Assembly (NCBI RefSeq): GCF_030384885.1
Contig: NZ_CP128613.1
DNA from: Escherichia coli
GTDB taxonomy: Bacteria; Pseudomonadota; Gammaproteobacteria; Enterobacterales; Enterobacteriaceae
Reading direction: 5' to 3' (one strand)
Length of the DNA stretch: 64,000 nucleotides
Shown here: positions 39,801-42,800 of the stretch, piece after piece
Position numbering within the stretch: the first letter of the stretch is position 1
How the letters are laid out: every line of letters begins with the position of its first letter
Made by a program: the position numbers

Positions 39801-42800
39801 GTGTTATTAGGGCCGCAGATTGCTTATATGTTGCCCGAAATCCAGCGTTTGTTACCCAACAAACCGGTTGAAGTAATTGACTCGCTGCTTTATGGCAAAG
39901 TCGATGGTTTAGGCGTGCTTAAGGCTGCGGTTGCAGCGATTAAAAAAGCCGCAGCAAATTAATTTATTTTAAATTTTCCCGTCAAAGAGTTATTTCATAA
40001 ATCAATACCGCAATATTTAAATTGCGGTTTTTAAGGGTATTTTTCTATGAGTAATGTTATTGCATCGCTTGAAAAGGTACTCCTCCCTTTTGCAGTTAAA
40101 ATAGGAAAGCAGCCACACGTTAATGCAATCAAAAATGGCTTTATTCGCTTAATGCCGTTAACCCTTGCGGGGGCCATGTTTGTATTAATTAACAACGTTT
40201 TTCTAAGCTTTGGGGAGGGGTCGTTTTTTTATTCCTTAGGTATTCGCCTGGATGCCTCAACCATTGAAACACTTAATGGTCTGAAAGGTATTGGCGGCAA
40301 CGTATATAACGGAACATTAGGGATAATGTCTTTAATGGCACCGTTCTTTATTGGCATGGCGCTGGCAGAAGAGCGTAAAGTCGATGCGCTGGCGGCTGGG
40401 TTGTTATCCGTTGCAGCATTTATGACCGTCACCCCATATAGTGTCGGTGAGGCCTATGCGGTTGGCGCAAACTGGTTAGGTGGGGCGAATATCATCTCCG
40501 GGATTATTATTGGCCTGGTGGTGGCAGAAATGTTTACCTTTATTGTCCGCCGCAATTGGGTCATTAAATTGCCCGACAGCGTACCTGCTTCAGTATCGCG
40601 TTCCTTCTCGGCATTAATTCCCGGCTTTATTATTCTTTCCGTGATGGGGATTATTGCCTGGGCGTTGAATACCTGGGGCACCAACTTCCATCAGATCATT
40701 ATGGATACCATCTCAACCCCACTGGCATCGTTGGGTAGCGTGGTGGGCTGGGCCTATGTGATCTTTGTTCCACTGCTCTGGTTCTTCGGTATTCATGGTG
40801 CGCTGGCGCTGACCGCACTGGACAACGGCATTATGACGCCGTGGGCGCTGGAAAATATCGCGACCTATCAGCAATATGGTTCCGTCGAAGCGGCGCTGGC
40901 AGCCGGTAAGACCTTCCATATCTGGGCCAAGCCGATGCTGGACTCCTTTATTTTCCTTGGGGGCAGTGGTGCGACTTTAGGCCTGATCCTGGCTATCTTT
41001 ATCGCCTCTCGCCGTGCTGATTATCGTCAGGTGGCAAAACTGGCGCTGCCGTCCGGCATCTTCCAGATTAACGAACCGATTCTGTTTGGTTTGCCAATTA
41101 TCATGAACCCGGTGATGTTTATCCCGTTTGTACTGGTGCAACCGATTCTGGCGGCAATCACTCTGGCAGCGTACTACATGGGCATTATTCCTCCGGTGAC
41201 CAATATTGCACCGTGGACCATGCCAACCGGTCTGGGGGCCTTCTTTAACACCAACGGTAGCGTCGCCGCATTGCTGGTCGCACTCTTCAACCTTGGTATC
41301 GCAACGTTAATTTATCTGCCCTTTGTTGTGGTCGCTAACAAAGCACAAAACACGATTGATAAAGAAGAGAGCGAAGAAGATATCGCTAATGCCCTGAAAT
41401 TTTAATCGATGCCGGTAGGAGTAATCGTGCCGGCAAGAAAAGAGAGGAACGATGTATGATGGATCTCGATAACATTCCCGATACGCAAACAGAAGCTGAA
41501 GAGCTGGAAGAAGTGGTGATGGGACTTATCATCAACTCCGGACAAGCGCGCAGCCTGGCGTATGCCGCACTGAAACAGGCGAAGCAGGGCGATTTTGCCG
41601 CAGCAAAAGCCATGATGGATCAGTCACGGATGGCATTGAATGAAGCGCATCTGGTACAGACGAAACTGATTGAAGGCGATGCGGGCGAAGGTAAGATGAA
41701 AGTGAGTCTGGTGCTGGTCCACGCTCAGGATCATTTAATGACGTCCATGCTTGCGCGTGAACTGATTACTGAATTAATTGAGCTTCATGAAAAACTGAAG
41801 GCATAAGGAGTTGATGATGCAGCCAGTGATTAACGCGCCGGAAATTGCCACTGCCCGAGAACAGCAGTTGTTTAATGGCAAAAACTTCCATGTGTTTATC
41901 TACAACAAAACTGAGAGTATCAGCGGACTGCATCAGCACGACTATTATGAATTTACTCTGGTATTAACCGGGCGTTACTTCCAGGAGATTAATGGTAAGC
42001 GCGTGTTACTGGAACGGGGCGATTTTGTTTTTATTCCGTTAGGTTCGCACCATCAAAGTTTTTATGAGTTTGGTGCCACGCGCATATTGAACGTTGGGAT
42101 CAGTAAACGCTTTTTTGAGCAGCATTACCTGCCGTTGTTGCCTTATTGCTTTGTCGCTTCGCAGGTATACCGGACCAATAACGCTTTTCTCACCTATGTG
42201 GAAACAGTGATTTCTTCATTGAATTTCCGCGAAACAGGGCTGGAAGAGTTTGTTGAGATGGTGACTTTTTATGTCATTAACCGTTTGCGTCATTACCGCG
42301 AAGAACAGGTGATTGATGATGTACCGCAGTGGCTGAAAAGTACGGTAGAAAAGATGCATGATAAAGAGCAGTTTAGTGAATCGGCGCTGGAGAATATGGT
42401 GACGTTGTCAGCCAAATCACAGGAATATTTGACGCGAGCGACTCAACGATATTATGGCAAAACACCAATGCAGATTATTAATGAGATCCGTATTAATTTT
42501 GCCAAAAAACAACTGGAAATGACCAACTATTCCGTGACGGATATTGCGTTTGAGGCCGGTTATAGTAGCCCGAGCTTGTTTATTAAAACGTTTAAGAAAT
42601 TAACGTCCTTTACGCCTAAGAGCTATCGTAAGAAATTGACTGAATTTAATCAGTAAGTCGTTATACCTGACAATTAACATATCTGTCCTGTTGCTGGATT
42701 ATTTATGTCCGGGGGCAGATATGCCAGATATCAGTATTCTGTACTGAAGGGAGAAATTATGAGCCAGAAATTAAAAGTCGTCACTATTGGTGGCGGGAGC

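Follow-up and report, generated by a model that had tools for sequence, protein, structure and literature searches.

A covarying stem-loop beside the ChiX trap is conserved in the chbB–chbC spacer of Enterobacterales

Introduction

The spacer between chbB and chbC is a published decoy, or sponge, for the small RNA ChiX and has been the subject of several papers. Upon induction of the chb operon, this trap is reported to titrate and destabilise ChiX, so that chiP, the chitoporin gene, is de-repressed. The trap was characterised in two organisms, Salmonella being one of them, and synthetic sponge RNAs are now built from the chbBC trap element. The decoy function of the spacer is already known, and the locus is textbook material as the founding example of a bacterial sRNA sponge carried by an mRNA. 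The trap is said to go back to Figueroa-Bossi et al. 2009 and Overgaard et al. 2009.

Several described systems resemble this spacer. SroC, which sponges GcvB and comes from the gltI-gltJ spacer of gltIJKL, is likewise an intercistronic sRNA sponge in a sugar/amino-acid transport operon. It arises by premature termination in gltIJKL and is a discrete sRNA, whereas the U-tract of the chb spacer is short and not conserved. ChiZ, a sponge of ChiX itself, derives from the chiP 5′ UTR and acquires its 3′ end by Rho-dependent termination within chiP. In contrast, the chb element is intercistronic and immediately precedes a ribosome-binding site. Stem-loops between cistrons can also act as stabilisers: REP hairpins after malE, and engineered hairpins that flank RNase E sites in synthetic operons, give the cistrons on their two sides different stabilities. 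The chb spacer shares with these a stable stem between cistrons beside an A/U-rich single strand, and by analogy the chb stem may have a stabilising role, but it is not a REP element, being unique and co-evolving with its operon. Finally, a canonical intrinsic terminator also has a G+C-containing stem-loop followed by a U run, as the chb hairpin does in E. coli. The chb hairpin differs in that 4 unpaired U are followed by AAGGG, in that its U-run is not conserved, and in that the genes downstream of it in the operon are needed.

With regard to the trap itself, the locus described here does not differ from the published one, as both locus and sequence are the same. We found no discussion of the stem-loop, its covariation or its fixed Shine-Dalgarno (SD) spacing in the literature on the chbBC trap, and searching the literature on chbBC for a stem-loop, or for a terminator, returned nothing relevant; both statements apply to the literature aside from the original decoy papers, which lay outside the coverage of the search and may assign or exclude a role for the stem. 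What we add is comparative and modest: the terminator-like hairpin of E. coli is a covarying stem conserved in Enterobacterales, independently of the U-run and of the ChiX site.

Organisation of the chbB-chbC spacer

The window, that is, the whole 64-kb stretch of E. coli DNA that was analysed, is identical in sequence to K-12 at the chbB-chbC region. The features of this region are listed in Table 1. Together, the U/A tract, trap, linker, stem-loop and chbC SD with its start codon may well constitute one compact RNA module of 84 nt within the chbBCARFG mRNA.

Table 1. Features of the chbB-chbC region, with positions in the window
Feature	Position	Strand	Remarks
chbB CDS (PTS chitobiose EIIB)	39642–39962	+	From the ORF list; identical to K-12 b1738; stop TAA 39960–39962
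chbB-chbC spacer	39963–40046	+	84 nt, from the chbB stop codon to the chbC ATG
U/A-rich tract TTTATTTTAAATTTT	39963–39977	+	Abuts the ChiX site on its 5′ side
ChiX-complementary tract (trap)	39978–39998	+	Pairs with ChiX nt 38–58
A/U-rich single-stranded linker, trap to hairpin	39999–40006	+	Unpaired in predicted folds
RNA stem-loop	40007–40028	+	5′ arm ACCGCAAT 40007–14, loop ATTTAA 40015–20, 3′ arm ATTGCGGT 40021–28
T-run, five T	40028–40032	+	First T shared with the stem
Probable chbC Shine-Dalgarno, AAGGG	40033–40037	+	Begins 4 nt past the stem, ends 9 nt before the ATG
chbC CDS (PTS chitobiose EIIC)	40047–41405	+	From the ORF list; identical to K-12 b1737; PF02378 in homologues

The initial annotation had noted that the spacer is reported to act as a ChiX decoy. 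This agrees with the published sponge and with our alignment of ChiX to the spacer, which located a unique, near-perfect complement of the ChiX seed in the trap. With the ChiX sequence taken from K-12, CCCGTCAAAGAG (39978–39989) was found to pair with ChiX nt 47–58 in an exact match of 12 bp, an extended match to the ChiX seed CUCUUUGACGGG. In the predicted duplex, TT at 39990–91 then forms a 2 × 2 internal loop, and ATTTCAT (39992–39998) pairs with ChiX nt 38–44 in a second helix of 7 bp. At −28.5 kcal/mol, this duplex was the best of 2130 tiles, which covered the window on both strands and had a mean of −13.4 (sd 2.7); the trap 12-mer occurs once in the window. ChiX sites were scored by a scan of the seed region, since the many false optima that arose from long loops made the folding of full-length duplexes uninformative.

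Of 86 spacers from Enterobacteriaceae, Serratia, Mixta and Proteus, 76 carried the ChiX-site core GTCAAAGA, and in these 76 loci the 15 nt upstream of the core contained on average 71% T and 94% A+T. We infer that the U/A-rich tract is a candidate Hfq-rim site, as in targets of class II sRNAs like ChiX, and the linker on the other side of the trap is possibly an RNase E-accessible segment.

The trap ends 9 nt upstream of the hairpin, and cofolding indicated that ChiX pairing and the hairpin are compatible, both being present in the predicted structure. The hairpin itself was found exactly as the initial annotation had described it, with arms CCGCAAT (40008–40014) and ATTGCGG (40021–40027), and its stem is even longer, because the first T of the T-run can pair with A40007. 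With this further A-U pair the stem counts 8 bp, of which 4 are G-C, and folds at −10.0 kcal/mol; 4 U are left unpaired. The annotated TTTTT was likewise present, although its end lies 14 nt from the chbC ATG and not about 12 nt as first given.

Among 20,000 shuffled spacers, 3 contained a perfect stem of 8 bp with 4 or more G-C pairs; hairpins of this kind number only about a dozen in the window. The z-score for the fold of the whole spacer was −2.1. An Rfam 15 search of 36–46 kb at E ≤ 1 gave no match in the spacer, the only matches being ES036 and a weak naRNA4 near 37.9 kb.

Conservation and covariation of the stem-loop

Homologous spacers gave strong covariation support for the hairpin. 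Across 73 distinct spacers, 96% of the alignment cells in the hairpin helix were paired, as against 24–56% in controls with slid partners. Compensatory changes were observed in 5 of the 8 stem pairs, and the covariation score reached 0.362, compared with 0.167 in shuffles, none of 500 of which attained the observed value. RNAalifold recovered the same stem, and the stem was retained across loci while the loop varied from 3 to 8 nt. The same approach gave a different outcome for a second E. coli inverted repeat (39995–40009 / 40036–40050) that might have sequestered the chbC AUG: 67.3% of its cells were paired, equal to the shuffle mean, with 275 of 500 shuffles reaching this value, and the candidate was rejected.

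The position of the stem-loop was conserved together with its pairing. Its 3′ end lay 16–18 nt from the chbC ATG in 79 of 85 related chb loci, the AAGG of the SD was nearly invariant in the spacer alignment, and the spacing from stem to SD was fixed at 4–5 nt. The gap between the ChiX-site core and the hairpin was 14–19 nt in related loci, and among relatives the segment upstream of the trap could be as short as about 12 nt or as long as about 100 nt. The stem-loop was found in four families of Enterobacterales. These comparisons indicate that it is a conserved RNA structure under selection, whose distance from the chbC ribosome-binding site is fixed.

In five Kosakonia loci and in Pantoea alhagi, hairpin and SD were retained and the ChiX core was absent. 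The stem-loop accordingly appears to be kept independently of the ChiX site, since it persists where the trap has decayed. In Klebsiella and Raoultella, we found a second hairpin 5′ of the trap, long and variable in sequence yet folding in every case, so that the trap is bracketed by stems in these genera.

The U-run and transcription termination

A hairpin followed by a U-run resembles an intrinsic terminator, and the initial annotation had suggested that the structure could be a partial terminator that modulates read-through into chbC. Under such a leaky terminator or attenuator, some transcripts would end after the hairpin and U-run, chbCARFG would be expressed below chbB, and a short chbB-trap RNA would be released in the manner of SroC. 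In favour of this, the 8-bp stem with its 4 G-C pairs precedes UUUUU in E. coli, and its −10 kcal/mol is near the energy of the neighbouring osmE terminator hairpin (39375–39396, −11.6 kcal/mol). An intrinsic terminator is expected to have a U-tract of about 7–8 nt immediately behind its stem; the osmE terminator has 8 T without interruption, 3 in the stem and 5 after it, whereas the chb hairpin is followed by 4 unpaired U and then AAGGG. A simple terminator scan made no call for the hairpin on the plus strand, as the 8-bp stem has only 4 T behind it; the plus strand satisfied the scan rule only when the stem was counted as 7 bp, with 5 T then falling within 8 nt, and the call was made on the minus strand alone. 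Scoring in the style of d'Aubenton-Carafa with modern energies gave negative values in all 85 loci, but this score is uncalibrated and its threshold was not relied on. Term-seq data from cultures in which the chb operon was not induced listed no chb entries.

Among the 85 loci, the first 8 nt past the stem contained between 0 and 5 T, with a median of 3. The post-stem tails included ATTTAAGGG or ATTTAAGG in Salmonella and Citrobacter, AATAAAGGA in Buttiauxella, GCGAAAGGA or GCGAAAGG in Mixta, where there is no U-run, and GTGCAAGGA or GTGCAAGG in Pantoea. Thus, at orthologous positions, the U-tract was not conserved alongside the stem. Most relatives with the hairpin lack the U-tract or have it interrupted, with almost no U in Mixta, Pantoea and Buttiauxella; these relatives include Salmonella, where the trap was characterised. 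The U-run is lineage-specific and lies outside the conserved element, and the suggestion of a partial terminator is consequently left without comparative support. Moreover, chbC, chbA, chbF and chbG are needed for chitobiose use, which would require high read-through. We therefore consider a leaky terminator unlikely as the function of this hairpin.

Hfq docking, pausing and DNA-level explanations

Another explanation is that the stem, with its U and A flanks, places Hfq, or trap-bound ChiX-Hfq, next to the chbC SD, so that ChiX could tune chbC translation when transcription is weak. Both the fixed spacing of 4–5 nt between stem and SD and the near-fixed distance between stem and trap would suit such a docking arrangement. 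It would also fit a finding attributed to Plumbridge et al. 2014, who reportedly observed down-regulation of chbC by ChiX when chb expression is low. In addition, chbC RNA was enriched in a published Hfq co-immunoprecipitation and was called as a ChiX target. On the other hand, the Kosakonia hairpin persists despite loss of the ChiX site, and the U-tail favoured by the proximal face of Hfq is short and unconserved here. The 4 unpaired U after the hairpin in E. coli, and the still fewer in most relatives, fall below the at least 6 U of an Hfq-dependent sRNA 3′ module; ChiX itself has 7 U after its terminator hairpin. Docking of Hfq seems a rather improbable function for a stem that outlives the ChiX site.

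A transcriptional pause stabilised by the hairpin, some 10–11 nt past the stem, might provide time for ChiX-Hfq to load on the nascent trap, or for polymerase-ribosome coupling at chbC. The conserved stem is indeed followed by a conserved UUUAAGG segment, and the geometry of class I pauses would be compatible with such a stem and downstream segment. Outside the Enterobacteriaceae, however, the post-stem sequence varies, and we regard pausing as a very unlikely reason for the conservation of the stem. Least credible of all is that the repeat is a protein-binding palindrome in DNA, a minus-strand terminator or a chance structure: although it is a perfect DNA palindrome that is flagged as terminator-like on the minus strand, its arms covary as the sequence changes and its loop varies from 3 to 8 nt, as expected for an RNA stem but not for a protein site with fixed spacing; the minus-strand terminator was rejected because no convergent minus-strand gene ends here in the ORF list and the 5′ flank is not conserved, being not A-rich in relatives (CACACA linkers, for example); and chance is excluded by the shuffled spacers together with the covariation.

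A possible boundary between the chbB and chbC cistrons

Our preferred interpretation, which we hold with about as much belief as doubt, is that the stem-loop serves as a structural boundary or stability element between the chbB and chbC cistrons. As a 3′ cap, the stem would protect RNA fragments consisting of chbB plus the trap from 3′ exonucleases. Where it abuts the ribosome-bound chbC start, it would hinder 5′-end-dependent attack of RNase E on chbCARFG once the RNA has been cut within the ChiX-trap duplex or close to it. A boundary of this kind would leave the downstream genes intact, neither destroyed nor silenced by what happens at the trap. In Escherichia, the five-U run after the −10 kcal/mol stem could give weak termination or pausing, superimposed on the boundary stem. 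A role as a 3′ cap alone does not need the fixed spacing of 4–5 nt to the SD, which counts against a pure cap.

We also considered how the hairpin might act on translation of chbC. The predicted accessibility of the SD and AUG was unaltered by disruption of the hairpin, the SD being 0.28–0.30 unpaired in the wild type, in arm-complemented and compensatory variants, and in 60 arm-shuffled variants. Any effect of the hairpin on translation would therefore not be a simple unmasking, and the idea of an insulator of the ribosome-binding site, examined with the same partition-function calculation, found no thermodynamic support. Direct interplay between the stem and the trap was rejected as well: the 5′ arm as a mimic of the trap, and an antiterminator-like pairing of the 3′ arm with the trap, each gave about −5 kcal/mol, no better than permutations of the arms (median fractions 0.22 and 0.10).

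A bolder version of the boundary interpretation, which we put forward as doubtful, would make the stem-loop an uncharacterised, integral part of the trap that, by its fixed position between trap and chbC SD, decides the outcome of ChiX pairing. In this role it would cap and stabilise the trap RNA, directing destruction to ChiX instead of the mRNA, and would couple chbC translation to ChiX-Hfq or insulate it from them; in Klebsiella and Raoultella, the additional 5′ stem would turn the trap into a doubly capped, excisable sponge. If the stem proved to be needed for the stability of the trap, or for chbC expression during the destruction of ChiX, this would explain how one transcript can be sponge and messenger at the same time, and would provide a design rule for synthetic sponge RNAs.

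A minor observation concerns the linker: natural E. coli isolates carry IS1 insertions here, and the IS1 target duplication, at 40000–40008, falls in the region between trap and hairpin.

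Results

The window comes from the E. coli chromosome. Around the chbB-chbC spacer (layout in the table), the interval 39600-40200 matched thousands of E. coli genomes, including K-12 MG1655, with 100% identity. The hairpin reported for this spacer by the initial annotation was present as described, with 7 bp, or 8 bp when the closing A-U pair is counted, and a folding energy of -10.0 kcal/mol. An Rfam search returned no family for the stem-loop.

Features of the chbB-chbC spacer and its surroundings
Feature	Position	Strand	Description
osmE intrinsic terminator, canonical-looking	39375-39401		AAACCGGC-loop-GCCGGTTT then TTTTT
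chbB	39642-39962	+	ORF
chbB-chbC spacer	39963-40046	+	84 nt between both ORFs
T/A-rich 5' tract	39963-39977	+	TTTATTTTAAATTTT
ChiX-pairing tract (trap)	39978-39998	+	CCCGTCAAAGAG TT ATTTCAT
Linker		+	AAATCAAT
Hairpin, arm-loop-arm	40007-40028	+	ACCGCAAT ATTTAA ATTGCGGT
Segment after hairpin, then ATG		+	TTTT AAGGG TATTTTTCT
T-run	40028-40032	+	3' end 14 nt 5' of chbC ATG
AAGGG	40033-40037	+	likely Shine-Dalgarno sequence of chbC
chbC	40047-41405	+	ORF

Using the ChiX sequence of K-12 (507204-507287; Rfam sroB, 82 bits), we found that its nt 47-58 (CUCUUUGACGGG) are the exact complement of 39978-39989, and that nt 38-44 (AUGAAAU) pair with 39992-39998 beyond a 2x2 internal loop. The duplex, at -28.5 kcal/mol, ranked top of 2130 tiles from both strands of the window (mean -13.4, sd 2.7), and the complementary 12-mer occurred only once in the window. 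The 3' end of the pairing site lies 9 nt upstream of the hairpin without overlap, and in cofolding the hairpin and the duplex coexisted. According to several papers, the chbB-chbC intergenic region is a sponge that base-pairs with ChiX and accelerates its decay, so that chiP repression is relieved; in a screen of a genomic library for ChiX silencers, all recovered clones contained this region. Since the pairing site is the published decoy, the decoy proposed for this spacer is correct, and both the trap locus and its function were already known.

We then compared 80 chbC loci, one per species (Escherichia, Citrobacter, Salmonella, Enterobacter, Klebsiella, Raoultella, Kosakonia, Buttiauxella, Cedecea, Proteus and others), and 6 more distant ones from Serratia, Pantoea, Mixta, Providencia, Vibrio and Aeromonas. 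When 73 distinct spacers were aligned, 96% of the cells of the 8-bp helix were paired, against 24-56% with the 3' partner slid, and compensatory double changes were found in 5 of the 8 pairs, as in the arms GCCGTAAT/ATTACGGC, GCCGTCATC/GATGACGGC and GCCGCCAG/CTGGCGGC. The covariation score of the helix was 0.362 versus 0.167 when shuffled (0 of 500 shuffles reached 0.362), and RNAalifold recovered the same stem. Its position was fixed as well: the hairpin ended 16-18 nt from the chbC ATG, 4-5 nt 5' of AAGG, in 79 of 85 loci, and 14-19 nt lay between the ChiX-site core and the hairpin, whereas the segment 5' of the trap measured between about 12 and about 100 nt. Kosakonia species and Pantoea alhagi retained the stem and the Shine-Dalgarno sequence with a degenerate or absent ChiX core; the hairpin is independent of the ChiX site. 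Loci of Providencia, Vibrio and Aeromonas had neither hairpin nor ChiX site. These comparisons show that the chbBC stem-loop is a selected RNA structure.

Proposed role of the stem

With middling confidence, we propose that the stem, placed between the trap and the chbC ribosome-binding site, marks a boundary there or stabilises the RNA. Capping the 3' end of chbB-plus-trap fragments, it would keep 3' exonucleases from degrading them. Once the RNA is cut around the ChiX-trap duplex, the stem, together with a ribosome on the adjoining start region, would also obstruct RNase E in its 5'-end-dependent attack on chbCARFG. Through this capping and obstruction the transcript could sponge ChiX while the downstream message is kept. 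Supporting context comes from Klebsiella and Raoultella, where another hairpin, about 85 nt long and closed by AAAACUC...GAGUUU, immediately precedes the U-rich tract and trap, which places the trap between two stems; the interior of this extra hairpin varies by species and folds in every case (L032, L034, L038, L042, L045, L051, L054-L056 and L058; spacers 147-169 nt, upstream of position 1500). The T/A-rich tract 5' of the trap offers further such context. Across the 76 loci with a ChiX-site core, these 15 nt averaged 71% T and 94% A+T. Class II sRNAs, ChiX among them, have targets that use the rim of Hfq, and the tract is possibly a rim-binding site of this kind. The new part is comparative: the stem covaries, its spacing to the chbC start is fixed, and it depends on neither the U-run nor the ChiX site. 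No discussion of the stem's role was found in the accessible literature; the original trap papers may already note the stem.

A leaky terminator, close to the partial terminator modulating read-through into chbC that the initial annotation had considered, is a rather unlikely alternative. We took the osmE terminator as a local yardstick: the stem energies were similar (-10.0 and -11.6 kcal/mol), but the chbBC hairpin has only four unpaired U followed by AAGGG, whereas osmE has eight unbroken T. Because only 4 T trail the 8-bp stem, a simple terminator scan left the hairpin uncalled on the + strand; it was called on the - strand. Across loci, the 8 nt 3' of the stem held a median of 3 T (range 0-5). 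The tail was ATTTAAGGG in Salmonella and most Citrobacter and Enterobacter, CTTAAAGGG in the Klebsiella oxytoca group, AATAAAGGA in Buttiauxella, GTGCAAGGA in Pantoea and GCGAAAGGA in Mixta; an unbroken run of five T was essentially confined to Escherichia, and tails with at least 4 T were scattered elsewhere. The U-run is thus not conserved with the stem. Since selection acts on the stem and its distance to the chbC start, not on the U-tract, a conserved intrinsic-terminator function is unlikely. Of the initial interpretation, the decoy half holds and a conserved terminator is not supported. Supplementary Term-seq tables, from LB or glucose cultures with the chb operon uninduced, held no chb entries.

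The stem could instead be an Hfq docking and translation-control element coupling ChiX occupancy to chbC, which we consider unlikely. ChiX reportedly represses chbC at low expression. In published work, chbC RNA was enriched in Hfq co-immunoprecipitation and called a ChiX target. Weak termination or pausing at the hairpin is possible in E. coli; a pause hairpin as the explanation of the stem is very improbable. A DNA-level element or chance structure is hardly credible: the 64-kb window has only about a dozen comparable hairpins, shuffling the spacer 20,000 times gave such a stem 3 times, and the loop varied from 3 to 8 nt with the stem retained, which favours an RNA structure over a protein-binding palindrome.

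Other observations

Two further pairings were rejected. Resemblance of the hairpin 5' arm to the trap, which would allow the 3' arm to pair with the trap, was weak and no better than for permuted arms; an E. coli inverted repeat (39995-40009/40036-40050) that could sequester the chbC AUG had no comparative support. Disrupting the hairpin in silico left the predicted accessibility of the chbC Shine-Dalgarno sequence and AUG unchanged.

Several natural E. coli genomes carry IS1 exactly at the 5' foot of the hairpin (window 40000-40008; 9-bp target duplication AATCAATAC; for example L088, positions 700-720 and 1470-1500), so that the trap remains on the chbB side and the hairpin, Shine-Dalgarno sequence and chbC lie beyond the insertion. 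In another genome (H40) the match ends at 40008. Kosakonia and one soil MAG (L021-L023, L027, L050) have a decayed ChiX site and retain hairpin, spacing and Shine-Dalgarno sequence, and K. oryziphila (L026) has an element of about 140 nt inserted between hairpin and Shine-Dalgarno sequence (flanks GGGCCTGGCCC / GGGCCAGGC). In Serratia fonticola (L082, 1384-1500) two tandem ChiX-site cores (AAGTCAAAGAG, CAGTCAAAGAG) lie 5' of the conserved hairpin. Locus L039 (CACSKA010000006.1, titled Chryseobacterium sp. 18061) holds a typical Enterobacteriaceae chb operon and is probably mislabelled or contaminated, because it shares a nearly identical spacer with L044 (Citrobacter sp. 18056), a record of the same study.

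Among the database proteins P0001-P0003 and P0006, some E. coli ChbC entries have annotated N-terminal extensions (479-487 aa), and one ENA entry of 579 aa joins a PTS_IIB to a PTS_EIIC domain; errors of annotation or assembly around the spacer may explain them. Elsewhere in the window, Rfam ES036 (CssrF) matched 37854-37896 on the - strand above its gathering score (42.9 bits); next to it, shortly after nadE, a strong hairpin at 37913-37936 (-16.4 kcal/mol) gave a weak naRNA4-like match.
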